A DNA stretch of 20,000 nucleotides from Euglena gracilis (Eukaryota): assembly GCA_039621445.1 (NCBI GenBank), contig CP154954.1, positions 11,180,923 through 11,200,922 of the forward strand. The letters run 5' to 3'. Shown in pieces: positions 1 through 20,000 of this stretch. The stretch's first letter is position 1. Every line of letters begins with the position of its first letter. The notes under the pieces are model-generated. The model was not told the DNA's origin, made no database searches, and worked only from the letters and a program-made list of their open reading frames with translations. Made by a program: the position numbers and the translations under genes.

Positions 1-946
1 GATTGGACTGCAGAGCGGAGTGATTCCACTTCTGCAAACCACGTTTCACAGCTGACGCTACTTCGGGCGGGTCTCTCCGAGGGGATATCCCCTATGGCCG
101 GAGGGTCTCGTCCGAAAACAATTTTGTACGGTGAGTGTGGTAATACCAACCCTGGCAAGGTATTGATGTAAAATAAACACCAATGAAGAACGGATAACCA
201 ATTCTTACCCGAGTCAGCCAGTGAAAGGCGAAGCATATTGACAACGGATTTCACGGCTGCCTCGGCTCTACCATTGCCTTTCGGGCGGTATATAATGGAA
301 AAATGCTGCTCAATGCCGAGTAAACCGCACAAAGTTGTGAAAAATCGCGACGAGATCAAGTGATCTTGATCACTCACGATTTCGTGCGGTAAACCCATTA
401 AGCAGACAATTTTTCCAGGAATATGGATGCCAAAATTTGGGCTGTCAACCCTGCTTTCCGGCATGGAATGGCTACAATGTACCCACTCAGCCGACAGACG
501 ACAACAAAAACGTAATTGTAAATTTTGTCATCTGATCCTTTGCAAGGTTCAAGTTCGATAAAATCCATGCAGAGGGACGTAAAAATGTCTGGTGGTACGG
601 GGAAAACGTCCATCGTACCAGGGGGGGTACCTCTGCGCGGTTTTACAGCTTGACAAATTTGGCACCGTTGCGAAATTCGCAAACAGCGCGAATATAATTC
701 TTTTTTACTCAGGGTTGTGCATTATCTGCGACCCACTAGTGAAAGAAGTTTGGGGGCCCCAGGGTGACCATGGTTGTGATACCTCAAAATCACATCATCA
801 ACCAGGTCTTGGGGTATACAATATTTATAACCAGAAACATTCCGGAAAATAAGCCGCAATGGTGATAGAGAGTAATTCTCTATGGATTCACCATTACTAC
901 GTCTATTCACAATGGTACTATATATAGGGTCACGCGAATAACCCAT
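1..946 (-). pseudogene. pol: Integrase of copy A, disrupted, partial at the window edge
   Basis: HHCC zinc motif (YHNHGHPG...CQICQ) and catalytic D (CMDF), D (IVSDQD), E (GRAEAAV). In-frame TAA at 722-724 and frameshifts near 400 and 945, judged partly against the open homologous ORF at 18752..20000. Confidence 0.92.
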
Positions 947-3204
947 TCGCGGAAAAATAGGGGGGTATGAGTTTCCGTACGCGTAATGCGACGGGGTGCG
1001 GCAGTGCGTCCACGCCGGCGCCTTCCACGCAATGGTGAAATGGCGATGCTGCGATATACACGGGAAACGGGTAGTGAATCGAGCATATTGTCCGCAGTGT
1101 CGGATCGACGTGCGAACTGGTCAGCCTCATGGCTGCCATGAAAAGTCGCATCACCCTCATCCGGGTTCCAAGGATAATTCCAGGGGGCTCGGCTGAGAGG
1201 ATCCGCAACGTTTTGCGTGTGACCTGGGGTATAGATAACCACCAGGTGAAACTGGCTCAAGAACTCATGCCAGCGGCATCTTCTGCCAACTGATGACATG
1301 GCCTTGTTTAGGTCCTCGGTATACCAGTGTTGAAGGCTCTCATGATCCGTCAACACGCGTATCTGGACCAAGCTGCTGGCTATCCAGCTGCGGAATGTCT
1401 GGAGAATAAGCACAATGGCATATGTCTCCTTTTCGCGAATGCTCCATTTAACCTGTCCTTTCCCGTTGTCGCCCTGCAGCTTCCTGCTGAAGACAGCCAC
1501 AGGTCGGAGTTCATTCGCCGCATTATGCGGGCTAAGAACCCCGCCAACTGCGTAATCGCTGCTGTCGACTTCCAGGACATACGGTTTATATGGTTCCGCG
1601 ATATCGAGAACCACGTTCTCGAGCAGCAAGTTCTTGATTTTATTCAAGGCCTCGCGCATTTGGTCATCCCAAATGACTTTTGCGTTATCGGGTGTCCGAT
1701 TTTTGAGTTGTCGGGTTAGGGGTATCGCGATTTTCGCGAAATCTTTCATATAAACCGCGTAATATTGGGCTAATCCCAAAAATCCCTTTAAATGCGTTAA
1801 GGTCTTAATGACCACAGGAGTCCATTTCTTAATGGCATCCATCTTACTGGGTGCGGCTTTACGCTGCCCGTTGCTCAGGATGTGTCCGCAAAACTTAATA
1901 ATTTTGCGAAACAGGTGCATTTTGGAACCCTTCACAAAAAGCACATGCTTTTGGAACGCGGATAACAGCGCCCGCACATCGCGATAATGCGGTTCGAGGA
2001 TATCCTCGCCCGATTTCGCGGATGGTGGTTGGGATCCCACCAGTACATCATCGATGTACACCAGAGCAAACGGTAAAACGCGCAAAACCCACTCTATCAT
2101 GCGTTGAAACATGGCTGGGCCATTCTTATCACCCATGGGGAGTACCATCCATTGGTACACACCCTTGGATGTCACAAATGCCGTGTACGGTTGCGAATCA
2201 GGATGCAAATGCATCTGATGGAAACCGTCTTCCAGATCAAAGATTGACCACAACCGGTTATCCGATTGTCTGGTGATCAAATCCTCGATCAGCGGTAACG
2301 GGGAGGGGTCATCCCTCGTTTGGAAGTTCAGGTACCGGTAATCCAGCACTAGTCTCCACTTCTTCTGACCAGACTGGTCAGCAGGTTTGGGCACCACAAA
2401 ATCCTGTGATGTCCATTCGCTCTTGGAAGGGATAACCCACTTCCGCTGGATGAGCTTCTCAATCATCTCTTTCAGAGCTTGCTCGCGTTCACCTGAACAA
2501 CGGAAGAATTTCCGGTGCATGGGTTTAGCGCCATCCTTGAGCTCGATTTTGCAAACACCGAACGGACCGCGAATCGCGGGGTCGATGTCGCAGGCGTATA
2601 CTGGGTTATCCAGTACACCATGAAATTCGCGAGTAATTCGCGAACAGTAGTCAGCAGACTTGGGGTGTTGGTCCGCACTCTCAACGACCGCAGAAATCTG
2701 CGTTGAGGGTGTGGCATCCCAATTGGTACCAAGGTATCTTGGCACACACACATCGGATATTCCGAGTGCGTCGAAGAAACAAATGCGAAAAATGATTTGT
2801 TTAACAGGTGGTAATAATATACCACAAAAGTCCTCGAATAGTGGTACATCAGCGGGTAAATCCCACGAATGAAAACACACAGAGGATAGTTGGTGAAACC
2901 AATCTGCATTCGGACTGACAGGTATGAGGGGAGCTCGCCGCGTTTCATCGCGGGGGATTTTCTCCACCACATCCGGGATAAGTTTTGGGGGAGGGTGCAT
3001 CCAGAGGACCGTATCACCCCAAAATTTTAGAAACACGTTGGAATGTCGCGACCAATATCGTGACAAGCGCGCATGCGCTTTTGATGAAAACGCATCAATT
3101 TCCAACGACAAATCGAAGGAATCGGCCAAAACCGCCATTTTGGAGGACGATCCCTCCAAAATACGGTATTGACCAAAATTAAATGCGTTCCATACACGCA
3201 TCAC
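907..3204 (-). CDS. pol: Pol segment: methyltransferase-like domain + reverse transcriptase + RNase H (open fragment of a disrupted pol)
   Basis: RT motifs WRLVLDYRYLN, FDLEDGFHQM, MVLPMGDKNGPAMFQR, YIDDVLV, FCGHIL. Gypsy RNase H motifs LEVDSSDYAVGGVL, EKETYAIV, TDHESL, NVADPLSR. Confidence 0.95.
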   Translation of the reverse strand: MMRVWNAFNFGQYRILEGSSSKMAVLADSFDLSLEIDAFSSKAHARLSRYWSRHSNVFLKFWGDTVLWMHPPPKLIPDVVEKIPRDETRRAPLIPVSPNADWFHQLSSVCFHSWDLPADVPLFEDFCGILLPPVKQIIFRICFFDALGISDVCVPRYLGTNWDATPSTQISAVVESADQHPKSADYCSRITREFHGVLDNPVYACDIDPAIRGPFGVCKIELKDGAKPMHRKFFRCSGEREQALKEMIEKLIQRKWVIPSKSEWTSQDFVVPKPADQSGQKKWRLVLDYRYLNFQTRDDPSPLPLIEDLITRQSDNRLWSIFDLEDGFHQMHLHPDSQPYTAFVTSKGVYQWMVLPMGDKNGPAMFQRMIEWVLRVLPFALVYIDDVLVGSQPPSAKSGEDILEPHYRDVRALLSAFQKHVLFVKGSKMHLFRKIIKFCGHILSNGQRKAAPSKMDAIKKWTPVVIKTLTHLKGFLGLAQYYAVYMKDFAKIAIPLTRQLKNRTPDNAKVIWDDQMREALNKIKNLLLENVVLDIAEPYKPYVLEVDSSDYAVGGVLSPHNAANELRPVAVFSRKLQGDNGKGQVKWSIREKETYAIVLILQTFRSWIASSLVQIRVLTDHESLQHWYTEDLNKAMSSVGRRCRWHEFLSQFHLVVIYTPGHTQNVADPLSRAPWNYPWNPDEGDATFHGSHEADQFARRSDTADNMLDSLPVSRVYRSIAISPLRGRRRRGRTAAPRRITRTETHTPLFFREWVIRVTLYIVPL
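2767..3171 (-). other. Dam/N6-adenine DNA methyltransferase-like domain inside Pol, N-terminal to RT
   Basis: IDAFSSKAHARLSRYWS...NVFLKFWGDTVLWMHPPPKLIPDVVEKI..DE....LIPVSPNADWFHQL follows the spacing of the phage-Dam/DIRS MT pattern (D-x-F-A-S..N...Y/F-x-S...DAF...W....NPP(Y/F/W)..I..V+.K......++P.W....W). The catalytic NPPY-type motif reads HPPP here. Confidence 0.75.
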
Positions 3205-4600
3205 GTACGTGTCGACCTGGTTCGTGGCAATTCAGGGATCCGCAAACATAAGTCAAGGGTGTGTTATCCACACTCCCTAGGGGCATTCCCAAGGGTTGAT
3301 GGGTTGGATGGGTTAATACCCAGTCCGTATCATGCGAGATGGAGGTGGGGGAGGTGTGTGACACGGATTTCGCGGTCCCAAACAACAAGGCAATACCTCG
3401 TTGTTGGAGCACTTGATGTACGGTCGCACATTGCGATCCGCAACCAAGTGTATGGTTACGCGAAATCGGGATTAGTGTTGGTGTTTGGACTAGACATCCA
3501 CAATCGAAATCTGTCTGGGCAGAAATTCTCCTTCAGTGCACACATTGGAAGGTAGTGTCGGAGTAGTGGTCCTGGTCGCGCATGTTGGTCTGGTGGGTGT
3601 GTGTGTAAAAGTTGGAATGCGCTCTTGTAGCTGCTGGGGGCTGTACAGATGTATCTGAAAGCGATACATCTGGTGGAAAACGGGGTGTTGGTGCAGCTGG
3701 GCGACTACTGGACACCGTACGTACTTCGGGCCTTTGGGCTTTCGTCTTGTAACCCAGTGGAACGAGGGGGGTACCGCTACTCGCTTGCCCTGCCTCATGG
3801 GGAACGGACGTTGGTGTGTCAATGGGCAGGGGGTGAACTTTCTCGGTACACCCGGTGTGGAAAACGTTGGTTGGTGTGGTTGGTAACGGGGTAAAAAATT
3901 TTGAAAACGGTGTGAAAAAATTGGTGGTCGTCGCGGTTGACGCCACAGGTGCTGAAGGTTTGAAGGGCAATGAAGAGAATGGTGATGTGCGCAAACCGTG
4001 GCAGTGGCAATCCACTACCAGCCGGTGCTGACGTGAAAAGGGGTATCCCAGAATTACGTCAGAACCATGGATTCCGGATTAGGATCCCCAGGTGTCCGGA
4101 AAATTTTGTGGTTGGGGGGGGTGTGAGTGGTGCTTGGGGATGAGGGGTAGGACAATGTCGAAAAAGCATCCCAAGTCACCACCACACATGGGGGTGTTGT
4201 CAGCCGTCGTAATTTTGCTCGGATTCTTGGCTTTCACCAAGAGGGGGGTTGGTATCAACCCGAACCGAAAAAGTAGTGCAATGCGACAACCAGTGTCAAT
4301 GATAATTCTGACTTTTGCACAAAAATTTTGTATTTTGGTTTCCGCTTGGACCAAAAGTTCCATGGGGGGTAAGCAAAGTGAAGGGTCTGGCGAAAATAAG
4401 TTTTCTTACCAGCTTTCCCACCAACCCTTTCCTACTTTGCACAACATTCCGAGCAAAAAGTTGGAGTGGGGGGTGGGGGACCCGAAAATTTCCCGGGTAC
4501 CGACCAGAAAGGCAGATGGGCAGGGGCGGCAGGGTTGATGAGGTCCTACATCCATCTGTTCACCAGCCCAGAGGTCCGTGCCCTCGGACCTCGGGCTCCC
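3179..4600 (-). pseudogene. pol: 5' pol of copy A: aspartic protease plus Pro/Thr-rich linker, disrupted
   Basis: IIDTGCRIAL active-site motif and GIHGSDVILGYP motif. TAA at 4079-4081 (GAA in copy B), TGA at 3533-3535, and a frameshift near 3200. Confidence 0.85.
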
Positions 4601-4603
4601 CTA
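4565..4603 (-). promoter_or_regulatory. gag TAG plus 3' stem-loop (candidate readthrough signal), copy A
   Basis: Minus strand reads TAG GGG AGCCC GAGGTCCG AGGGCA CGGACCTC T GGGCT. The frame after the TAG continues into the protease. Confidence 0.7.
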
Positions 4604-5719
4604 CTCCAGGTCCGAACCGGCCGAATAGCCGGCTATGGGCCTTTTAGAGGTGTAAACGGATTTCAACGTGCGCACTGCCATGCGGGCACCGGCTGACCTA
4701 CCCCGAGGGGTACTGTGTTTCCGCTCATCGCGGAACGGGATTCGGGAGCTAATACCACCGGAACGGGGACCCGATGACCGTGAATTGCCTGATTGGCGTG
4801 AAAATGCGGAGGAACCCGAACCCCGTGAAGATGTCGAGCCTCGCGGACTCTTAATACGCTTACGCGCTTCAGGATTAGGACATTCCCGAGACATATGTCC
4901 CGCTTTGTTGCACAAAAAGCGCACGTTATCCGTGGCTTGGTCCGAAGAACGCGGATATCGCGTTTTCGATCCGGTGGTAGGTGAAGTGGGTGAAACCGGT
5001 GATTTTTGCAATGCGTTCACCGAACCAGCCGGTAATCCACCGGTTGGGTGTGCGTTATACGCGGATTGAATCTGACCAAGAAGCTGTGATAGCTTCAACT
5101 GCTTGGAAACGTAATTCCAGCGTTGGTCAAGAGGCATTGGATGACTCGCCAACTCCTCACGGTGGATATCCTTGATGAGGCTAGGCGTGAAATGCAGGAG
5201 AACAGCATCAAACTGTTCGCGCACTTGCTTTTCACTGAGTTCATCCACTTCAGCGGCAAGTCCTAACCATTTGGCATACCAAAGGTCAATGGACTTCCAC
5301 TTGCGGTCGGGTGGGGCGCATTGCCGCCACTTGGTCTCCAGGGTAATCCTAGCGACCAAACTTGAACTGGTGGAAGCGTATTGCTCCACCAGGTCATCAA
5401 AGGAAACGCGGTAGCTAATAACGAGTTGTCGCGCGCGTTCCTTCTCATCCCTTGGGAGGCAATCGATGAAGTCCATCTTGATCACCTCCGGGTTTGTGTC
5501 CTGGGTTGGCCCTTTCATTGCCCAGTAGTACTCCCAGTCCCGGAAAAACTGTCTCCATGTGGTTGGATCACCGTCCCATTGGGGTTTCACCTTATTCGCG
5601 ATTGCGATGGTGCCCTTGAAGTCTTTCTGAACAACCCAATGACCCTCGGTGGTATTCCGCGGTTTTGGGCCTGGGTACGCTCGAGCACCAAGCGTATCCT
5701 TTCCGGATTCCTGTCGGAA
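4601..5719 (-). CDS. gag: Gag core of copy A (capsid-like region, degenerate CCHC knuckle, Ser/Arg-rich tail with a 411-bp internal deletion)
   Basis: KPQWDGDPTTWRQFFRDWEYYW retrotransposon-gag-like start and RFLCNKAGHMSRECP knuckle (first Cys intact in copy B). Lies directly upstream of the protease. No ATG precedes the capsid-like start. Confidence 0.85.
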   Translation of the reverse strand, partial: FRQESGKDTLGARAYPGPKPRNTTEGHWVVQKDFKGTIAIANKVKPQWDGDPTTWRQFFRDWEYYWAMKGPTQDTNPEVIKMDFIDCLPRDEKERARQLVISYRVSFDDLVEQYASTSSSLVARITLETKWRQCAPPDRKWKSIDLWYAKWLGLAAEVDELSEKQVREQFDAVLLHFTPSLIKDIHREELASHPMPLDQRWNYVSKQLKLSQLLGQIQSAYNAHPTGGLPAGSVNALQKSPVSPTSPTTGSKTRYPRSSDQATDNVRFLCNKAGHMSRECPNPEARKRIKSPRGSTSSRGSGSSAFSRQSGNSRSSGPRSGGISSRIPFRDERKHSTPRGRSAGARMAVRTLKSVYTSKRPIAGYSAGSDLE

Positions 5720-7590
5720 TCACGAGATTTCTGGTGAAGGTGAATCCTGGTACCGGAAATACGGTCGCAAACCCTGTTGGTCACCCGTAATACGGGGACT
5801 CTCCGGTGTGAGGGTATGTGGCGCATGCAACGTGTGGCCCACTCCCGGTGTACGGGTTTGGCTCATTCCTAGCACAAGCATGGAATGATGGATTTCATGG
5901 TGGAGACTTGGCGGAATCGCCGTGTTTTCCGCAAATTCGGTTCCCGTAATTGGAAATTCATCCGAAAACTAGGTTTGGGTTGTGGGCAAGGCCAATGGTG
6001 GCACATTTCGCGGAATCGCGGATTGTGACACTCGGGATACGGGTGGTGATTTGGCGCAACTTCGGCAATGCATACTGCCGAATTGCGGTGTGAAACCCGC
6101 TGTTGGTTGGACACATTATCCAAACCCACAGACAAGTCATGCACACTTTGCTCCAAATGCTCAACGAGTTGGAGTTGGTCGCAAATATGGTCAATTTCAT
6201 CCTCCAAAACGCGAATACGCTTGCGGTAACGGGAAAAGTCATCCAAGTGCGGAATCCTTTCGGAAATTACGGTAACATCTTGGACAAGCTTCCCGTGAGA
6301 CTTATCCAATGATTGGAGTTGTCCCATTAATGCTTTTACAGCATTTGACAGAATCTGCAAAGGTGATGTTACCTTGGTTGGTGTGGTGGTGGGTGCCACC
6401 GGTGCAGGGTTATCCGACAACGCGGTTGTGGTACCCACGGCAAATTTCCGGGTTGTGGTTTATCCAAAAACGCGGAAATTCGCTCATCCAACCTGGTGAT
6501 CTCACTTAGCGTGGATCAGGCGTTCCGATTCACCGATTCCTCGGTGGGAAAGTGCGGAATTGCTTTGTTGCAAACCCACAATGGCCGAGTTAATCCCGCC
6601 AATGTCGGATTGCAACTGCAACTGCAGAGAATCCTGCCGTTGTGCTACTTCCGCTACTTTCGCGCTCAGATTGGACAATCCAACGTGATTCGCGTCACAA
6701 TAGCAGGTTTTCTGATCCAAGCGGGAAAGTCGCTCCTCCAACTGCCGCACATACGTGTGGGGAGCAAAATTCTCGTTGGCTTGTGACTGGAATTGCCGAA
6801 ACGTTTCCGTTTCATCGCACAACTGCATAATGCGGTGTTGCAATTCATGGAAAGTTGCGGACAATGTGGTGAAATGGTCCATAGACACAAATCCACCACT
6901 GCTGGATGTTGCAGACGAGAAATCTCGTGCATGCAACTGTTGTTGCAAATGCAACAACGAGGAGGAACGGGACTCCATTTGTCCCGATAACTGTCGTAGT
7001 GAGTCATGCAAGTGCAGAAACTTGGAGTCATTCCGCGTTTCCGCTTCATGCATGCATTCACTAATTTGCCGGAAGTTTTGCGGGAGTTGTTGGCACATTT
7101 TGTCAAAGGTTTCCCGAAAGTTTGCAAGGTCAATACCCGCACTTTCGAAATTCCTCTGGCAATATTTGCCAACTTCCTGCAAGTAATTCCAGCAGTATTC
7201 CAGCTTGGTTAAGACATGTTTTTGGTTGTCCTCATCAAACTGGAGCACTTTGTTGAGTGCGGTTGCACAATCTGCAACGCATTGTTGCACATGGTTGAAC
7301 TGCCTCACAAGGGGGTGATCCCCGGGAAGCCGAGCAACGATATCCTGCACATCCTCAGCAGTGAGGAGCTCCACAGTGCCCTTCCCATAGCCATCCATGT
7401 GTTGGGACGTACCAGAGTATTCTGGTACCACTAGGCGAGTCTCCGGTTGCCAAGGTAGTGCGGGATAGCACCCAAGATCGGGTGGTGGTGGCAAAGCTCT
7501 GTAAGGGCTTGCCGGTGGACGAACGGGTGGTGGTTGAAAGAAACACGGGGTTTCCAACCCACCATCACCAGAGAAGCCCGGTGGCGGAAT
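5720..7590 (-). pseudogene. ORF0 or N-terminal Gag extension of copy A (coiled-coil-like), disrupted by deletions
   Basis: ORFs 6502..7593 and 5869..6438 are Q/L/E/S-rich with heptad-like runs (VRQLEERLSRLDQK; RIRVLEDEIDHICDQLQLVEHLEQSVHDL). The frame leads to TGA 5720-5722 in the gag frame. Confidence 0.7.
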
Positions 7591-7591
7591 C

Positions 7592-9728
7592 ACTCAGCCA
7601 CCGGGCTTCTCTGGTGATGGTGGGCTGGAAACCCGGTGTTTCTTTCAAACACCACCCGTTCGTCCACCGGCAAGCCCTTACAGAGCTTTGCCACCACCAC
7701 CCGATATTGGGTGCTATCCCGCACTACCTTGGCAACCGGATACTCGCCTAGTAGTACCAGAATTCTCTGGTACGTTCCAACCCATGGATGGCTATGGGAA
7801 GGGCACTGGGGAGCTCCTCACTGCTGGGGATATGCAGGATATCGTTGCTCGGCTTCCGGGGGATCACCCTCTTGTGAGGCAGTTCAACCATGTGCAACAA
7901 TGTGTTGCAGATTGTGCAACCGCACTCAACAAAGTGCTCCAGTTTGATGAGGACACCCAAAAACATGTCTTCACCAAGCTGGAATACTGCTGGAATAACT
8001 TGCAGGAAGTTGGCAAATATTGCCAGAGGAATTTCGAAAGTGCGGGTATTGACCTTGCAAACTTTCGGGAAACCTTTGACAAAATACGCCAACAACTCCC
8101 GCAAAACTTCCGGCTAATTAGTGAATGCATGCATGAAGCGGAAACGCGGAATGACTCCAAGTTTCTGCACTTGCATGTCTCACTACACCAGTTATCGGGA
8201 CAAATGGAGTCCTGTTCATCCGCGTTGTTGCATTTGCAACAACAGTTGCATGCACGAAATTCCTCGTCTGCAACATCCAGCACTGGTTGATTTGTGTCTA
8301 TGGACCATTTCACCACATTGTCCGCAACTTTCCATGAATCGCAACACCGCATTATGCAGTTGTGCGATGAAACGGAAAAGTTTCGGCAATTCCAGTCACA
8401 AGCCAACGAGAATTTTGCTCCCCACACGTATGTGCGGCAGTTGGAGGAGCGACTTTCCCGCTTGGATAAGAAAACCTGCTATTGTGACGCAAATCAGGTT
8501 GGATTAGCCAATCTGAGCGCGAAAGTCGCAGAAGTAGCACAACGGCAGGATTCCCTGCAGTTGCAGTTGCAATCCGACATTGGCGGGATTAAATCGGCCA
8601 TTGCGGGTTTGCAACAAAGCTATTCCGCACTTTCCCACCGAGTTCCGGACATTAGCGGTATTCAGACTGCCATTGTGGAACTTGAGACCGGTATGCATCG
8701 GTGTCTACCAAAGTGACGGAAATGCAGTCTTTGCCTGCAGGTAATCCGGGAACCCTGATTACCGAGAACCCTGATTTCAAGGCATTTTATGACAACATGC
8801 TCACTGACAATCAGGAAACCTTGCAAGATTTCTCCAACACAGCCTATTACGGCTTGAGGAATCGGTGAATCGGAATGCCCGATCCACGCAAGGTGAGATT
8901 ACCAGGTTGGATGAGCGAATTTCCGCGTTTTTGGATAAGCCACCACCCGGAAATTTGCACGTGGGTACCACAACCGCGTTGTCGGATAACCCTGCACCGG
9001 TTGCACCCCCACCACACCAACCAAGGTAACATCACCTTTGCAGACTCTGTCAAATGCTGTAAAAGCACTAATGGGACAACTCCAAATATTGGATGAGTCT
9101 CACGGGAACCTTGTCCAAGATCTTACCGTAATTTCCGAAAGGATTCCGCACTTGGATGACTTTTCCCGTTACCGCAAGCGTATTCGCGCTTTGGAGGATG
9201 AAGTTGACCGTATTTGCGGCCAACTCCAACTCGTTGAGCATTTGGAGCAAAGTGTGCATGACTTGTCTGTGGTTTTGGATAATGTGTCCAACCAACAGCG
9301 GGTTTCACACCGCAAATCGGCAGTATGTATTGCCAAAGATGCCTCAAATGTTCCAGAGTCGCGTTTCCATAACCCGGCTCTGGGTGCACATGCACCACCA
9401 CCACCCGTGTCCCGATTGTCACAACCCGCGAGTCCGCGAATTGTGCCACCATTGGCCTTGCCCACAACCCAAACCCAGTTTTCGGATGAATTTCCCATTA
9501 CGGGAACCGAATTTTCAGAAAAAAACGCCGATTCCGCCAAGTCTCCACCAAGAAATACAGCATTCCATGCTTGTGCGTGGAATGAGCCAAACCCGTACAC
9601 CGGGAGTGGGTCACATGTTGCATGCGCGACATACCCCTACACCGGAGAGTCCCCGTATTACGGGTGACCAACAGGGTTTGCGACCGTATTTCCGGTACCA
9701 GGATTCACCTTCACCAGAAATCTCGTGA
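7592..9728 (+). pseudogene. ORF0 or N-terminal Gag extension of copy B
   Basis: Fragments 7688..8290, 8294..8716, 9038..9667 and the tail of 9156..9728 join through a stop (TGA 8288-8290, GGA in copy A) and small frameshifts. Ends at TGA 9726-9728. Confidence 0.7.
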
Positions 9729-11259
9729 TTCTGACAGGAATCCGGAAAGGAGACGCTTGGTGCTCGAGCGTACCCAGGCCCAAAACCGCGGAATACCACC
9801 GAGGGTCATTGGGTTTCTCAGAAAGACTTCAAGGGCACCATCGCAATCGCGAAAAGGGTGAAACCCCAATGGGACGGTGATCCAACCACATGGAGACAGT
9901 TTTTCCGGGACTTGGAGTACTACTGGGCATTAAAAGGGCCAACCCAGGACACAAACCCGGAGGTGATCAAGATGGAATTCATCGATTGCCTCCCTAGGGA
10001 TGAGAAGGAGCGCGCACGACAACTCGTGATTCGCTACCGCGTTTCCTTTGATGACGTGGTGGAGCAATACGCTTCCACCAGTTCAAGTTTGGTCGCTAGG
10101 ATTACCCTAGAGACCAAGTGGCGGCAATGCGCCCCACCCGATCGCAAGTGGAAGTCCATTGACCTTTGGTATGCCAAATGGTTAGGACTTGCCGCTGAAG
10201 TGGATGAACTCAGTGAAAAGCAAATGCGCGAACAGTTTGATGCTGTTCTCCTGCACTTAACGCCTAGCCTCATCAAGGATATGCACCGTGAGGAGTTGGC
10301 GAGTCATCCAATGACTCTTGACCAACGCTGGAACTACGTTTCCAAGCAATTGAAGCTATCACAGCTTCTTGGTCAGATTCAATCCGTGTATAACACACAC
10401 CCAACCGCTGGATTACCAGCTGGTTCGGTGAACGCATTCCAAAAATAGCAGGTTTCACCCACTTCACCAAACACGGGATCGAAAACGCGATACCCGCGTT
10501 CTTCGGACCAAGCCACGGATAAAGTGTGCTTTTTGTGCAACAAAGCGGGACATATGTCTCGGGAATGTCCTAATCCTGATGCGTGTAAGCGTATTCAGAG
10601 TCCGCGAGGCTCGACCTCATCACGAGGTTCGGGTTCCTCCGCATTTTCACGCCAATCTGGCACTTCACGGTCATCGGGTCCCCGTTCCGGTGGTATTAGC
10701 CCCCGGATCCCGTTCTGCGATGAGCGGAAACATGGTAACCCCTCGGGGTAAGTCACCCGGTGCCCCGGCCAAGAAGCGTGATTCTCATCGCGAGACATCG
10801 CGATCGCGTTCGCGAATCGGATCATCTTCTTCGCGATCCTCATCGGGAAAACCCCGATACACCGGTCATGGTCGACGGGATATCCGGTCACCACGACGGT
10901 TTGACGGGAAATCGGGAAACCGATCCCCCCGTTACCCAGAATCGCGACACAAATCTCGGTGTTCGCTTTGTGGATCGAGTGATCACCACTCATCCAAATG
11001 ACTGCGTTCTCGTTCTCCCCGCCCTGGCCAACGTCACCGCGGTATGAACCGCGGTGACAAGTGTCACTCCTCCAACCGCCATAAAGTCGGTTTCAAGATA
11101 TCTTGTTTGGAGGATGACACCCCGGCTTCGGGCAGGGAGGGGGATGAGACCACGGATACCGATTTCGACGAGGCCCGCATGGCGGTGCGCACGTTGAAAG
11201 CCGTGTATACCTCTAAAAGGCCCATAGCCGGCTATTCGGCCGGTTCGGACCTGGAGTAG
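9729..11259 (+). pseudogene. gag: Gag core of copy B with two CCHC knuckles separated by an Arg/Ser-rich tract
   Basis: CFLCNKAGHMSREC (~10527) and CSLCGSSDHHSSK* (~10960-11001, last Cys position is TGA). TAG at 10446-10448 and a frameshift near 10738. Confidence 0.88.
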
Positions 11260-11295
11260 GGGAGCCCGAGGTCCGAGAGCACGGACCTCTGGGCT
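11257..11295 (+). promoter_or_regulatory. gag TAG plus 3' stem-loop (candidate readthrough signal), copy B
   Basis: TAG 11257-11259, then GGG, then a 13-bp stem 11263-11275/11282-11295 with one bulge and loop AGAGCA. Open and in frame with ORF 11305..(protease). Confidence 0.72.
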
Positions 11296-11817
11296 GATGA
11301 ACAGATGGAGGTAGGACCTGATCAACCCTGCCCCCCCTGCCCATCTGCCTTTCTGGTCGGTACCCGGGAAATTTTCGGGTCCCCCACCCCCCACTCCAGC
11401 TTTCCGCTCGGAATGTTGTGCAAAGTAGGAAAGGGTTCATGGGAAAGCTGGCAAGAAAACGTATTTTCGCCAGACCCTTCACTTTGCTTACCCCCCATGG
11501 AACTTTTGGTCCAAGCGGAAATCAAAATCCAAAATTTTTGTGCAAAAGTCAAAATTCTCATTGACACTGGTTGTCGCATTGCACTACTTTTTCGGTTCGG
11601 GTTGATACCAACCCCTCTCTTGGTGAAAGCCAAGAATCCGATCACAATTACGACGGCTGACAACACCCCCATGTGCGGTGGTGACTTGGGATGCTTTTTG
11701 GACATTGTCCTACCCCTCATCCCCAAGCACCACTCACACCACCCCCAACCGCAAAATTTTCCGGATACCTGGGGATACGAATCTGGAATCCACGGTTCTG
11801 ACGTAATTCTGGGATAC
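11260..11817 (+). pseudogene. pol: Aspartic protease of copy B, truncated by copy C
   Basis: LIDTGCRIAL and GIHGSDVILGY. Sequence after 11817 is LTR-derived. Confidence 0.88.
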
Positions 11818-13159: not shown

Positions 13160-16100
13160 TTACATCCGTTCCAGCCGCCAATAATCATGGCGGGAGTCCA
13201 AGGGATCTTCCCCAAGGACCATCTGGAATTGTGGTGGTGGTGGCCTGTCTACGAGCCAGGTTTCTGGCGATTCGTATTCGAAATCAGGTGCCACCCAGTC
13301 CCGAACCCATCCTTCGGGGACTGTGTGCTTGGTTACACTCGCTCTTTCCGCGAGGAACCACTGCAGCTACTCCCAGAATTTCCTGGGCAGAGTTGCTGGC
13401 CAGATGAAGTGGTTCATCCTTGGGTGATTGGCTGACACCTGCGGGGCATTCCCCGGGTGGAAGTCAATCGGCACGTGATACGCACATTCTGCGCGGACTG
13501 TATGGGGTCGTAATACGGCCCCAAGCCAGTCTTTCCAGGTCATCCCGTGGTTTTCGGGTGGCCATTGTGGCAGACACCAGCGACCGTTTCGGTCCTGGTT
13601 TTGGAACAGGCTGAAAAGTATCTTTTCCCTGTCTGCTGTCTCCCAGAGGTAAGGTAATCTTACCCCTGCCTCCTCAGCGGCGAGGCGTATCGCCCCACCG
13701 TCGATCTGCCACCCACGGGCCATTCCCGTGTGGCGGGAGTCGTCGAGCTTGAGGTTGGCATACTTGAAAAAGTCCTTGAACTTTTTGTTCAAGGTGGAGT
13801 ATTCCTCCAGTGGCTTCTCGGCACTTGGCACGATTGTGGGTACTGCGCCTTCCGCAGTGTGCCAGAAGGTACCTCGAAGGCAGTTGACGCAGAGTATCGG
13901 TACATTCGTACCGTCTCGTTCATTGGAACTGAAATTGTGCTTGTGGGTCCAACTGTCCACGCACTTGGCGCATACCAAGGCGGCACAGTTAGGGATGTAT
14001 ACATCCTTATGGAAGGATTTCCGATCCACAGGGTTGCACACATGGACGAGGAGTAATCCCAGGTCAGGTGCACTGTTATACATCTTGTGGCATACAGTGC
14101 AAAGCCACACAAAACGGTTTTCCGTTGTCTTGTCGATGAGGAATTCCTCACCGAAGTAATGGGCCAAAACACGGGGAATCTGGAATTGTAATAATTCCAG
14201 GTCACGTTCTGATCAAAGGACCATTTTCGGCCCTGACAGAACAGTGGCTCAATCCACCGGTTGGGGCATTGCTGTGTCCTCAGTTTGTGGTCGATCATCA
14301 TGTACCTGGGTTTCAGGTCATGAATCTCAGGATCATCCTGATTGACCGCGTTCCAGTCGATGATAACTTCGTCTTCCGAAGGTGTCTCGGCTGTTGAGGC
14401 GCGGGATTTTCCCTGCCCCTTTGACGAAGGTTTCGGCTGTGAGGTTTTCCCATAGCCGGATGATGTGACGTGCGTGAATCCTTGTCCCGAGGGTAATCCC
14501 CGAGAGGAGGATGCAGCACTCTGGCCGCCAGCACCACCACCGCCTTTCGGTGGGGGCTGATCACCAGATCTCGGTGCGGGCTTACAAGGTGCGGCGCCCG
14601 GCTTTGATTTTGCCGGGGCCTTCGGGCATCCGGTTTCCGGAGCATCCGAGGGCCGCCGATCGGCGTCGCGCTTGCTTGCCCAGGTGCGTGGTGACGCTTG
14701 GGACGGGGGTCGTCTCCCCGACACCGAGCGTCGTTGACCTTCAGCAGGGGTTTCCCGGGCTGAGGGCCGTCAAACGCGTTCCCTCGCGGCTTCCGTGGGT
14801 TTCCCAGGGGCAGCCGTGGGGGATGGTGTGGGTGTAGGCTCGGCCGGCACGCTTCGTACTGGTTGAGCCTGTGGTGGGGGCATGGACGTCCGCTTGGCCT
14901 GCTTTTCAGGCGCCGGTGTCCGTGTGCCCGGATGCTTTGGTGCAGTGGCTATGGCTGTGCGCTGAGGTGCGGGTTCATCCCGTGCCTCGGCTGGCGCTAC
15001 CGGTGCTGATACAGGTTCATCCTGTACCGACACGGTTGTTGTTGTCTCCACTGCCATTGTTGTCTGTTCGCCTTCCGTCCGTGTCGCTTCCGACACCGGT
15101 GGTGGCGCCGCCGCTGGGGGAGGTTCATCCTCCACCATGGCTGTTGTGTCACGTGTGTCTTCTGTCGGCTGGGCAGCTTCCGCCGCAGCTGTGGAAGAAC
15201 TGGCCGCTGTGCCACGTGGGGTGACAACTGCGATGAGTGACCGCAAACCACCGAGTACGCGTCCGCCTAGCAAGGTGCGTCGTTCCTCACCTGAAGTGGG
15301 CTCCTCGGTTGGCTCCTCTGTTAACGGGGTTTCCCCGGGAACAGGGAGCTTGAGGCGTAATACCTCAGGCGTGTGGGGCACCGTCTCCGGCGGGTTTTCC
15401 CGCGGAGGGGTCGGTCTGCCCGTCGTACCCAGTGAGGCTGGCGACAGTGGGACAGGCGTCATTTCACCTGTCGGCGATCCTGGGCGCTGGGCAGTTTCTG
15501 CCACAGTGTCCAGCATCACGACCGATGGGCTACGGGTTTTCCGTGCAGGGGGTTCCACTGGCTGACGTTCATCCTCGGCCATAGGGACCGTTTCTTCCTC
15601 CTCCTCCGCTTCCGGAGGGTAGTCCTCTGTGTGGAGTTGTGCTGCAGTGCGCGGGTCCTTTCCGCTTCTGTAGCACCCCTGTGCGTCGGACAGGCGGTAA
15701 AAGCTTATACTTTCACTCCTGTCAGAGTTGGGGTAAGGAGGCGGCCACGACGCTCTCACCCAGCTTCCGGGTGGAGGTTGCGGCTCGTCCTCGTTGATCA
15801 GGCAGAGGTCTTCCCACTGCGATCGAAGGTTCCATCCCATACCCTGCTCTCCTGTGTCTTCCAGGAAAGCGGGCAATGGGACCGTATACCGAGTGTGACT
15901 TACCTCGCGTGCTGCGAAGAAAGGTTCGAACTACTTCCAGTCGAGGATATCCCCGAACTAGGTGTCCAGGTGATCCCGCAGACCACTTTCTGCCTGCTCC
16001 CATTCCGGCCGCAGGTTCATCCTGCGTCGGTCTGGGTCATGAGGTCTGGCGTCCACCTCGGTGTATCCCCGAGGTAACCACTTCCTGTGGATATCCACAT

Positions 16101-18591
16101 CAGTGGTCATCTGTTCCAGGAAATAAATGTAGACTTCCAGGACGTAGGTAATCCACGCCCTGTGCCGGTACTGTTGTAGCAGAAATATTTTCTGCCGGTG
16201 CTGTTTCAGCACCTTTCGATCTTGTGTCCCAATCTGGGGATTCCGGCACTGATGCAGGAGGAATCTCCTGGTCGGCTGGCTGCCGGCACTTTCGGCAGTC
16301 GGAGGCGGTTTTCCGCGTTCTCCGAAACCCCAGAAGTCAGCAATGTGAACTTCCTTGCAAAACTGGCATTCCAGTTTGTACCGCTGGGGGTACGCGAGGT
16401 CGATGTCCAGCACCTTGAACAGCGTGCCATACATGCTGTCCAAGTATACTTGGAGGTTGCGTGTGAACATTACCGCAGCCTGCGCCAGGAGTTTCTCCGG
16501 CAGGGGGTAATATTTCCACTGGATTCCCAGTGCTCCGACGGAATACATGTGGTTGAAGATTTCCTTCAACTGTGCTACGAACGTTTCGTCGTCAGGACAT
16601 GTTCCCAAACAGTCGGCATACGTATGACCGTGTCGGTCGGTAAAGATGCCGAAGTTCTGGCAGGGGTATCCCAACCAGAACCACAGCTCCCAGAAACCGG
16701 ACATCCGGTCCAGGACTATTTCATCCGAATGAGGGTATCCCTCAAACGCATAAAGTTCTGAACTGTAGAAAAAACGTTTGCAGTGATCGTACATACGATT
16801 CTGCACCACTTCGAGCACCGCATCCGGTGGTCGGTGGATCACGTTGCTTGCGTGTGTAAACTGTTGGAGATCTTCGTCGATTTTCGGCCAGATCTCCTGC
16901 AGGTAGGTGAAAACTACAGTAACATCATCGTCCTTCGTTTTCGAAGGTTCGGCGGCTTTTCCGCCCTTGCCTGCTAGGGGTCGGGCAGATTTTCCGCCTT
17001 TACCTGGAGTTGGCCAAGCGGCTTTTCCGCCTTTGCCAGGTGGGGCTTTCCCACCTTTCTCCTGGCCTTTTCCTTTCCCCTTACCCTTGCCCTTGCCTTT
17101 ACCCTTAACCTTTGTGTTAGACAGCCATTCGAATGTCGCCCAGTAATCCCACTATTCTGGGTCTTCTGGCGTAAACACAGGGTAAGTCACCGATTCCGTG
17201 CTTGGCGTTCGAGCAAATTCCTGCTCAGCGTCACCACGATTCGAGTAAACCGGTGCGACTGGGGATAGTCGAGTTTCCCGACGTGCCCGTTCTGCCGTCA
17301 CGTCCGGCGCTGGCGGAGCTTCCTCCTCAGCGTCGACGTGCATCGTCGCGGGCGGATTTTCCGACCTCGGCGAGCGGCGCTGTGGCTGCGGCGTCAGATG
17401 TTCCGGGCCGCGGTCACGCTTGCTGGCGGCAGAGCTTGTGGGTCGTGCTGGTGGCGCTTCCGCCACAGCAACGTCCTGCTGTCGCGCTGGTTGACTTGAT
17501 CGTGATGGAGCTGGGACGCCTGTGAGAGCTGACACAGCAGCATCATACTGCTGGCGCTCTTCCCGTGTCATTTCCGCCCGGGCAGGGTATCCCTGGCCAG
17601 CGGAAACAGGGGGGCGACGTGCGATTTGTCGTTGGATCGTCACAGCATATTCATACTGTTGACGCTCCTCCTCCGTCTCGAACGGCCGGCCAGTCCACGG
17701 GTTAACGGGTTCATCCCGTGCCGGGGGAACTGGTGCCGCACGAGGTGCTGCCGCGGCTTCCCGCGGACGAGCGCTTCGGGTCGCCTCAGACGTCAGGGGA
17801 GGGTTTCCCTCCGCAGGACGTCGTGAGATAGGGTCAGGTATGGTTGGGTGGGGTTGAGGTGGATACACGTACTGATCCCGTGGCATTGGCGCCTCCCGGG
17901 GGTAATCCCCAGAGACGGTGTACTGAGACACAGGCTCCTGCGCAGGATAATCCCGCCGGGGCATGCGCTCAGGGGATCGAAAAATACTTTCTTTCACACG
18001 TGGGTGTTCACTCCGGACAGGTGCTTCCACTGTCTCTTCCTCGGGTAATCCGGGGGAGTGAGCACGAAAATGTGCGGTGTAAGTGCCAACTGGTGGTACC
18101 TGCCGTGCTACCTGTGGCGGGACTTCCAAGCCCAGGTCACGCATGGTAATGTCCGCCGCGAATCCCGACGCGTCCGGGTCGGTGTAATACACAAGACCGG
18201 TCATCGTCGCCTGGGCGCACATACCCCACAGGGCCGGAGGGGTATTCGCGATGGTCAAAATTTTACGGCAGTGGTCATCCCACAATGCCTGGGTGAGTTG
18301 GTCTGGTGCCAGGTTTGCGCTCATACGCATAACCCGGCTCATCGTCTTCGCCGTGCGGTGGATCATCACACCCGCATACGGTGGGAGGCGACGAGAGCCT
18401 GATGGCTGAGATGGCCGCGCTTCCGCGGGCATCTGGGTCATCCTGCTACTGCTGCTGGCTTCAGGGTTTCCCTGAGTCGCAGTCCGTGTAGGTGGCTGCG
18501 TACCGTGTCGGTACGCATACTGGTCAGTTTGAGGGTGGGTTGTGGGGTGGTAAGGCGGTCCTCCGCCTGGCTCCCTTCCACCGGGCAGCAT
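13160..18591 (-). pseudogene. Giant extra ORF (~1,810 codons) of unknown function between pol and the 3' LTR
   Basis: ORFs 17152..18591, 15958..16842, 14770..15876 and 13789..14724 share one frame, separated only by point stops (TAG 17152, TAG 15958, TAG 15931, TGA 14770). One frameshift at the T-run 14166-14169 leads into 13367..14167, then TAG 13367, then open to TAA 13160-13162. Confidence 0.8.
16955..17110 (-). repeat. Coding Gly-Lys repeat in the extra ORF
   Basis: Translates KVKGKGKGKGKGKGQEKGGKAPPGKGGKAAWPTPGKGGKSARPLAGKGGKA with varied synonymous codons. Confidence 0.8.
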
Positions 18592-18682
18592 GATACCGCC
18601 CGGGGTCGGTACGGTGGGATGTTTGGGTTGTTGGTTGTAAGATGTGTAAGGGTAACCGCTTGAGTATTATTTGCCAAAAAGT

Positions 18683-18751: not shown

Positions 18752-20000
18752 TCAAAAACTTGTCATGGAAACATCAATGTTATGCTTCTTGTTCCACAGC
18801 TTCCAATCTTGCTGGACATACCCAACAAAACTGGTTGCTGGTTCCCAAGTGTCCTCCTCGGGCCCATACCCTCTCCAGCGGACCTTCCAAAGGTGCATAT
18901 CTTTGTCGATTTTGTGATCGATAATTTTTTCGACTACAAAGTCGTCCGTCTCAGGTAATCTGGAACGGGGTTTGAAGTGCAAACACGGGATGGGTTTCCC
19001 ATCCGGTGGCGACAGGTATGGCTTGAAGTCGTCCATATGAACGTCCTCAACACCATTCAGTAATGCAACCTTGTAACGCCCGCTGGTACCTAGTCTTTCT
19101 AACATTTCACAGGGGCCGAGCCAGAGGGGGTCCAGCTTGGAAGACTGCATGCGAGTACGGTTTTTCCGCACCCACACGCGGTCACCGGGACTATACACAG
19201 GTGACTTGAAATTCTGCAAAAACGATTTCCGTTTGGTTGCATGAATATCAGTCACGCGCTTCTGCACTGCAGAACGTAAATTTTCTACTTCCGCAAACCA
19301 GGTCTCGCAACTGACACTCGTTCGGGCGGGTCTCTCCGAAGGGACATCCCCTATTGCTGGAGGGTCCCGTCCGAAAACTAATTTATAGGGGGAGTGAGGT
19401 AAAACCAACCCTGGTAGGGTATAAAACAAAGACCATGGTAGAACTGATATCCAGTTGCTGCGCGAGTCAGCCAGTGAAAGGCGAAGCATATTCACGACGG
19501 ATTTCACGGCAGCCTCGCCTCTACCATTGCCTTTGGGTCGGTATATAATGGAAAAATGTTGCTCGATTCCGAGTAAACCGCACAAAGTGGTGAAAAACCT
19601 TGAAGAAATCAAATGGTCTTGATCACTCACGATTTCATTCGGTAAACCCATTAAGCAAACGCATTTCTCCAAAAACATAGTTGCCAAACTTTGGGCAGTC
19701 AACCCTGACTTCTGCCATGGAATGGCTACAATGTACCCACTCAGCCTGCAGACGACAACAAAAATGTAATTGTAAATTCTGTCGTCCGTTCCTTTGCACG
19801 GTTCTAATTCCAGAAAATCCATGCAGAGGGATGTAAAAATGTCAGGGGGTACAGGGAAAAAGTCCATCGTACCAGGGGGGGTACCTCTGCGGGGCTTTAC
19901 CGCTTGACAAATTTGACACCGTTGCGCTATTCGCAAACAGCGTGAGTAAAGCTCTTTCTCGCTCAGGGTTGTGCAATACCTGCGGCCCACCACGAAAGAA
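18752..20000 (-). CDS. pol: Pol C-terminus of copy C: integrase core, GPY/F-like motif and chromodomain (5' partial)
   Basis: CQICQ; D-D-E in CMDF / IVSDQD / GNGRGEAAV; YSPGDRVWV...KLDPLWLGPC; chromodomain FVVEKIIDHK...WKVRWRGYGPEEDTWEP. Stop TGA at 18752-18754. Confidence 0.95.
   Translation of the reverse strand, partial: SFVVGRRYCTTLSEKELYSRCLRIAQRCQICQAVKPRRGTPPGTMDFFPVPPDIFTSLCMDFLELEPCKGTDDRIYNYIFVVVCRLSGYIVAIPWQKSGLTAQSLATMFLEKCVCLMGLPNEIVSDQDHLISSRFFTTLCGLLGIEQHFSIIYRPKGNGRGEAAVKSVVNMLRLSLADSRSNWISVLPWSLFYTLPGLVLPHSPYKLVFGRDPPAIGDVPSERPARTSVSCETWFAEVENLRSAVQKRVTDIHATKRKSFLQNFKSPVYSPGDRVWVRKNRTRMQSSKLDPLWLGPCEMLERLGTSGRYKVALLNGVEDVHMDDFKPYLSPPDGKPIPCLHFKPRSRLPETDDFVVEKIIDHKIDKDMHLWKVRWRGYGPEEDTWEPATSFVGYVQQDWKLWNKKHNIDVSMTSF

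Follow-up and report, generated by a model that had tools for sequence, protein, structure and literature searches.

The question raised by this locus is what a domain resembling adenine methyltransferases is doing inside the Pol of a Ty3/Gypsy-type retrotransposon, and whether it still methylates anything. The locus lies in a window of 20,000 nucleotides of Euglena gracilis DNA (assembly GCA_039621445.1, contig CP154954.1, positions 11,180,923 to 11,200,922), in which an earlier note, made from the letters alone, had placed a Dam-like segment at 2767-3171, between the protease and the reverse transcriptase (RT). Methyltransferase domains are reportedly, after Goodwin and Poulter, a feature of DIRS1-group tyrosine-recombinase retrotransposons, and the function of this methyltransferase-like domain has been open since it was first noticed. 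The main text of a recent preprint (Fernandez-Moreno et al., bioRxiv 10.64898/2026.05.21.726589, May 2026; hereafter the preprint) has revived the idea that elements use it to write N6-methyladenine (6mA) on themselves, and describes Dam-type domains in long terminal repeat (LTR) elements outside the DIRS group, the DAM-LTRs. The results presented below place the window segment in this domain family, within a clade whose catalytic tetrad is never canonical. The reading that we adopt, with moderate confidence, is that the segment would be a non-catalytic methyltransferase fold which binds nucleic acid, and perhaps S-adenosylmethionine (SAM), and serves the RT-RNase H unit during reverse transcription.

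The segment was located as the earlier note had it (residues 12-146 of frame 3231..907), with the feature lying on the minus strand; residues are numbered here along the 765-residue open reading frame (ORF) that starts at 3204 on that strand. All the motifs quoted in the note are present, including the HPPP that stands at the catalytic position, and the segment is indeed in frame with RT and RNase H (Table 1). In isolation (aa 1-146) it matches a single Pfam family, Dam (PF05869, E 5.4e-4), over profile positions 23-104 of 169, that is, about half of the profile including the region of the catalytic motif, with a score of 20.1 bits that falls short of the gathering cut-off of 28.1 bits. It differs from the phage and bacterial proteins of that family in this low score and in lying within the polyprotein of a eukaryotic retroelement.

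A word-based search with aa 20-215 retrieved one protein, P0002 (1208 aa, 62% identical), which continues into RT, RNase H and an integrase zinc finger; the two segments themselves are 64-66% identical. When P0002 is aligned to the window by tblastn, identity reaches 75% over the Dam-like domain, RT and RNase H versus 38% over the linker that precedes them, and therefore the domain is far better conserved than its upstream neighbour. A HMMER profile built from just these two sequences and run against 1.84 billion representative proteins recovers 484 proteins at E<=1e-3, 89 of them at E<=1e-10 and 11 at E<=1e-30. Five relatives exceed the Dam cut-off on their own (P0151 with 49.2 bits, P0020 with 39.7, P0017 with 37.9, P0018 with 35.8 and P0066 with 31.7), and the profile reaches these cut-off-passing proteins at E 1e-19 to 1e-25. 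Pfam Dam is found at E<=0.01 in 41 of 56 aligned members, and the clade of the window (see below), whose members are 40-48% identical over some 145 residues, gives Dam matches at E of about 5e-6 to 4e-3 in the members scanned. The window profile also finds, at E 1.3e-9, the DIRS-like protein P0112, in which RT, RNase H and a Dam-like domain follow each other. In the ESM Atlas only eukaryotic clusters were found, one of them with Dam on 11% of its members, and metagenome contigs scanned with the two-sequence alignment gave 490 pattern matches, none of which was confirmed. Homology to the Dam/DIRS-type methyltransferase domains, as the earlier note had proposed, is thus supported at the level of sequence.

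The predicted structure points in the same direction. An AlphaFold2 model computed from a 56-row alignment has a mean pLDDT (predicted local distance difference test) of 86 and a pTM (predicted template modelling score) of 0.75; pLDDT exceeds 90 over residues 1-150, and every 10-residue block up to residue 140 lies above that value. In this model HPPP follows a strand (67-69) and precedes a helix (73-86), as motif IV does. Comparison with the PDB by Foldseek returns first the human and zebrafish PCIF1/CAPAM (E 9.9e-4, prob 1.00, TM 0.54 on the query), followed by KsgA/DIMT1 and other methyltransferases. With VIA-align, CAPAM gives Z 10.7-11.5 at a root-mean-square deviation of 2.6-3.2 over 125-138 residues (9-15% identity), KsgA a Z of about 9, T4 Dam 8.8 and M.TaqI 8.1. 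A search against representative structures that is independent of Foldseek again ranks CAPAM first (Z 10.9), and all 50 of its top 50 entries are class-I methyltransferases. The segment is therefore predicted to be a class-I (Rossmann-type) methyltransferase fold, and the Pfam match and the model together bear out the identification made in the earlier note.

The rank of CAPAM invites the thought of a PCIF1-like role, in which the domain would recognise an adenosine of the element's own capped transcript, canonical relatives methylating it and the clade of the window having kept only the RNA binding. CAPAM comes first in all three structure searches, with mostly RNA adenine methyltransferases (KsgA/DIMT1, METTL5, Erm) ranked behind it. 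To this it can be added that P0112 matches Pfam PCIF1_WW, that Dam-type domains gave no signal in a DNA assay in E. coli according to the main text of the preprint, and that the parts of Iyer et al. 2016 (PMC4738411) dealing with DIRS1 place its domain in the PCIF1 clade; the same parts judge the DIRS1 methyltransferase domains likely inactive and propose that they bind transcripts. The likeness to CAPAM (PDB 6irv-6is0) is nevertheless confined to the methyltransferase core: CAPAM has an NPPF tetrad as well as WW and helical cap-binding domains, none of which was seen in the window, where PCIF1_WW gives no Pfam match at E<=1. In sequence the family is nearer to Pfam Dam than to PCIF1_WW, which is matched by a single one of the 56 aligned members. 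No PDB entry was found by sequence at E<=1 with the 56-row profile; because no solved chain is found by sequence and CAPAM leads by only 1-2 Z units, the structural ranking does not discriminate and a special kinship with PCIF1 is unproven. We regard a PCIF1-like role as distinctly improbable.

The position of the domain in Pol is the second line of evidence. Pfam was run on 20 long profile matches, the window and P0002 being counted besides. Dam lies upstream of RVT_1 in 6/20 (P0005, P0020, P0022, P0036, P0066 and P0098), and in P0022, P0036 and P0098 the frame goes on into RNase H and integrase, so that with the window and P0002 eight Pols have Dam upstream of a Gypsy-type RT. Other arrangements are RT, RNase H, Dam and integrase in P0151 (1/20), RT, RNase H and a Dam-like domain in DIRS fashion in P0112 (1/20), and integrase, Dam and RVT_2 in P0105 and P0130 (2/20), two Ty1/Copia-type Pols that hold the domain between integrase and RT. 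Nine of the 20 are fragments with Dam and without RT (P0003, P0004, P0008, P0010, P0011, P0017, P0018, P0023, P0117), and P0058 has no Pfam family (1/20). In P0009 and P0052 the domain continues into the pre-RT region. Weak protease matches stand upstream of Dam in P0018 and P0004, both of them fragments without RT, and likewise in P0151. The position upstream of RT, which the earlier note had recognised as unlike that of DIRS elements, is thus, as these relatives indicate, family-wide and common to many diverged elements. In every layout found the domain adjoins RT-RNase H, as would suit a function linked to reverse transcription.

The same comparison disposes of another explanation, namely that a DIRS fragment became nested in one Gypsy copy, or that the resemblance is due to chance. 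The copy in the window is degenerate, its neighbourhood is rearranged by a 3.5-kb head-to-head palindrome and its Pfam score is below the cut-off, all of which would suit such an accident. On the other hand, the domain is in frame with RT, six more distant Pols have the layout, as does P0002, HMMER finds 484 relatives, and in two DNA runs the coverage of the domain by over 22,000 contig pieces of the family is as even as that of RT. A nested fragment or local chimera is effectively refuted by the recurring layout, the relatives and the even coverage, and a local accident of either kind can hardly be credited. The element differs from the DIRS1 group in its integrase (DDE type, with a chromodomain in the second family copy, where DIRS1 elements have a tyrosine recombinase) and in holding the domain before RT and not after RNase H; it shares with that group the domain family and a non-canonical tetrad, which reads FPPP in P0112.

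In enzymes with a (D/N/S)PP(Y/F/W) tetrad the first residue hydrogen-bonds the N6 amino group of the target, and the flipped adenine stacks against the aromatic residue. A census of this motif was taken in an HMM (hidden Markov model) alignment of the best 150 of the 484 matches together with P0002 and the window (153 aligned stretches). Among these best matches the column that holds His in the window is filled in 144 rows, with Asn in 98, His in 26 and Cys in 13; the two Pro columns hold Pro in 126/144 and 135/144, and the fourth column has Phe in 77, Tyr in 12 and Leu in 11. The commonest form is hence NPPF/Y/W, the tetrad of N6-adenine methyltransferases. For a tree, rows had to fill 95 or more of the 132 match columns; 97 did so, and 56 shorter ones (including P0013 and P0052) were dropped. 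The resulting tree places the window in a clade of 14 rows with a Shimodaira-Hasegawa-like approximate likelihood ratio (SH-aLRT) support of 96 in a quick search, and with an ultrafast bootstrap (UFBoot) of 99 and SH-aLRT of 96 in a careful search whose bootstrap had not fully settled. The tetrads of this clade are NPPI (four rows), NPPV (two), NPPL, YPPI, NPHY, HPPF, HPMF, HCPR, HPPL and HPPP. The pattern [NDS]PP[FYWH] is matched by none of the 14, versus 43 of the 83 rows outside, and in most members the aromatic residue has become aliphatic.

Both key positions are replaced in the window and in P0002, which reads HPPL. HPPP itself recurs in P0013 (66% identical over 91 residues) and P0052, and the codons at 2986-2997 contain no difference among the 40 best-supported of 220 differences between the window copy and family copies in two DNA runs. 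Near-fixed differences inside the domain are found instead at 2766, 2954, 3007 and 3146, and at other conserved positions the window copy carries private changes, its end branch measuring 0.35-0.38 versus 0.06 for P0002. The earlier note had left the choice between decay of this copy and a family-wide change. Private decay is rejected, His being shared with P0002, P0013 and P0052 and the canonical form being absent from all 14 clade members; HPPP/HPPL is, as far as the aligned relatives tell, the state of the family.

Similar replacements are seen elsewhere in the tree. A second clade of 10 rows with SH-aLRT 100 (P0046, P0059, P0062, P0086, P0090, P0091, P0096, P0101, P0124, P0138) has HPP[D/N] in 8/10, the others being HPSP and HPTI, with a Trp three or four residues further on, and an 8-row cluster with SH-aLRT 89 is mostly CPPF. 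On this alignment the catalytic Asn is lost repeatedly in the domain family.

The family-wide non-canonical tetrad favours an inactive fold over 6mA self-marking, so far as sequence can tell. In the mechanism that we propose, the clade domain would no longer methylate adenine N6, the Asn/Asp, the base-stacking aromatic residue or both having been replaced, and would persist as a module without catalysis, binding nucleic acid and perhaps SAM. Once the protease has cut, it would form an N-terminal extension of RT-RNase H, and it would act on the template RNA or on the RNA:DNA product during reverse transcription.

Several points weigh against this proposal. Other conserved pocket-like positions survive in the window or in P0002 (D37, F39, N56/F58, W62, P71-P72, K82), which could mean cofactor binding and a residual or altered activity, and His is able both to donate and to accept hydrogen bonds. 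Many of the relatives, being from short metagenome-type contigs, may themselves have decayed, and the count of 0/14 includes the dead window copy and a long-branch row, P0147. The N-terminal extension of RT is a guess. Finally, the main text of the preprint argues for a conserved DAM pocket and gives DAM-LTR copies enriched in 6mA in two ichthyosporeans and in Euglena.

These points lead to the alternative in which intact members would be active N6-adenine methyltransferases that mark the complementary DNA (cDNA) or the RNA:DNA intermediate with 6mA, the odd tetrad being tolerated. In its favour, the model shows an intact fold with good confidence, several conserved positions on the pocket side are kept along with the Pro-Pro core, the domain has lasted through deep divergence, and the preprint's main text gives both 6mA enrichment and higher expression for DAM-LTRs in three species. 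The canonical tetrad is, however, absent from all 14 clade members, with both key positions changed in the window and P0002; the preprint's assay in E. coli gave, in the main text, no gain of 6mA even for DAM domains described there as having a conserved pocket, and the 6mA data presented there are drawn from other lineages. We consider active marking unlikely for this clade.

The claim that Ty3/Gypsy Pol lacks such a domain has been outdated since May 2026. The main text of the preprint puts the eukaryotic DAM proteins at 10,030 and the independent DAM-LTR lineages at no fewer than four to five, one of them chlorophyte and chromovirus-like. Like the family in the window, these have a DIRS-related DAM domain in a Ty3/Gypsy-type Pol, with a chromodomain in the chromovirus-like lineage and with very high copy numbers in some hosts. 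Judged by its sequence and by that text, the window element is of the DAM-LTR kind already described. It differs in its tetrad: the Asn-Pro-Pro triplet is said there to be retained in nearly all DAM-LTRs, whereas the window has HPPP and its clade 0/14 canonical forms. The screen described there used hmmsearch at E<=1e-5, and the Pfam score of the window (20 bits) is far weaker than this, hence the window clade may have been missed or under-sampled. The main text mentions no clade lacking the canonical tetrad and no elements below that threshold, and the words 'protease', 'copia' and 'inactive' do not occur in it; the figures and supplements may hold this very family as well as the protease-DAM-RT layout. 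A further comparison is with Gypsy-DNMT3 and the DNA methyltransferases (DNMT) of SymbioLINE and SymbioDIRS, all named in the preprint, which likewise have the fold of a DNA-modification enzyme captured in a retroelement Pol; these are cytosine methyltransferases of another family, with another target base and another position in Pol.

The remaining features of the element are collected in Table 1.

Table 1. Features of the Dam-carrying element and of a second family copy in the window.
Feature	Position	Strand	Evidence
774-codon frame from stop to stop, with Dam-like domain, RT and RNase H	907..3231	-	
Dam/DIRS-type domain, predicted class-I methyltransferase fold, aa 3-150 of frame 3231..907	2755..3198	-	Pfam, HMMER, AlphaFold2, CAPAM match
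Motif IV position, H-P-P-P (N-P-P-F/Y/W in most relatives)	2986..2997	-	
Reverse transcriptase RVT_1, aa 272-443	1876..2391	-	Pfam E 7e-24
RNase H (RT_RNaseH_2 / RT_RNaseH), aa 512-652	1249..1671	-	Pfam E 4e-21 and 6e-20
Integrase, zinc-binding part and DDE core, broken; exits the window at base 3	3..1120	-	Frames; tblastn of P0002
Pro-rich, fast-evolving linker from putative protease to Dam-like domain	3232..4009	-	38% identity to P0002
Putative aspartic protease, D-T-G at 4289-4297 and ILG motif downstream	4010..4340	-	Motifs read from the sequence
Gag-like frame with CCHC zinc knuckle (~4874-4912)	4601..5719	-	zf-CCHC E 0.0012, below cut-off
Second family copy, integrase end with chromodomain (18833-18940)	18752..19999	-	DNA identity, Pfam

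Integrase parts follow RNase H, in shifted frames, in the Dam-carrying copy, whose integrase end falls beyond the window. The chromodomain is seen in the second copy, at 18752-19999, which has 81-87% DNA identity to window positions 4-708 and is 85% identical to P0002, with Pfam matches to rve (E 1.2e-10) and Chromo (E 1e-10). The host element is a Ty3/Gypsy element with a DDE integrase, from a family with a chromodomain, and not one with a tyrosine recombinase, as the earlier note had held for the integrase, and the window contains a single Dam-like plus RT part. The placement between protease and RT stands on the RT side and holds in part on the other: the D-T-G and ILG motifs are there, and no Pfam protease was matched either in the separate frames or in a read-through with X at stops. 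The linker that runs from the putative protease to the Dam-like domain has some 270 residues. It cannot be aligned across the clade except for a conserved Cys motif, QC-x2-C-x-R ... Q-x-[DN]-[FY]-D-C-G-C (3485-3550, minus strand), which is common to the window, P0002, P0004, P0005, P0006, P0008, P0010 and P0011, precedes the Dam-like domain by about 120-170 residues and may be a small zinc-binding module.

Upstream of gag there is a frame of 363 codons (6502-7593 on the minus strand, with its mirror at 7538-8290 on the plus strand) that is predicted to be coiled-coil-like, gives weak Pfam matches to Sec10_N (E 9e-4) and Retrotrans_gag (E 0.049) and may be the N-terminal portion of an unusually long Gag. 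No LTR pair was found within the window; the 3' end lies past base 1 and the 5' end is cut at the centre of a large head-to-head palindrome (~7591). The palindrome joins 4043-7588 to 7594-11817, with 5 nt between the inner arms and with arms 88-96% complementary in pieces. Its arms are the 5' halves (upstream frame, gag and protease) of two element copies, both of which are cut at the centre, and therefore the 5' LTR is missing; the match of the plus-strand copy ends at 11817, within the protease. It could be a true inverted duplication or a fold-back of the assembly. Directly downstream of the chromodomain of the second copy, 13789-18666 on the minus strand is about 1,600 codons in one frame with few stops and a G+C content of up to 0.61. 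Its product would be rich in Pro, Ala and Gly with a GK repeat and matches no Pfam family at E<=0.1 except, weakly, 2C_adapt (E 0.025); a Cys-rich frame follows it at 13367-14212.

The Dam-carrying copy is dead, because it contains in-frame stops (4079-4081 in the putative protease, 3533-3535 inside the linker Cys motif and 722-724 in the integrase) and frameshifts (near 3225-3231, near 943-964, where the tblastn alignment of P0002 switches frame, and another somewhere between about 400 and 527). In its host the family forms a very abundant repeat. In the two DNA runs, each with 1.4-1.8 thousand million letters, 23,841 and 22,651 contig pieces have at least 88% likeness over 900-4500 (3.6 kb), and they cover the Dam-like domain as evenly as RT. 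RNA run X24 contains 84 reads of 88-99% likeness, sparsely scattered along the whole stretch in both orientations, and not one of them reaches 99%. The 50 reads of run X21 are mostly partial and pile up at 3300-3455, to a depth of up to about 13; they share a fixed set of differences and have loose ends at either side, as though some 150 nt of linker were present in another transcript or in a diverged copy. These reads represent at most low-level transcripts of related copies and not expression of this one.

Concerning what the finding means, a Gypsy lineage that keeps the domain but not the tetrad would imply that at least part of the domain's value is independent of methyl transfer, and its placement in Gypsy-, Copia- and DIRS-type Pols, immediately ahead of RT or immediately behind RNase H, would tie its role to reverse transcription. 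A Pfam Dam screen at E<=1e-5 probably under-counts such elements. The more specific idea that an old Gypsy clade keeps a pseudo-enzyme, structurally nearest to PCIF1, as an RNA- or hybrid-binding partner of its reverse transcriptase is doubtful on these sequences. If it is true, the 25-year-old puzzle of the DIRS methyltransferase domain would get a non-epigenetic answer, template handling rather than 6mA marking, and the natural series from NPPF through NPPI/V/L and HPPF to HPPL/P within one layout would make the pseudo-enzyme reading testable.

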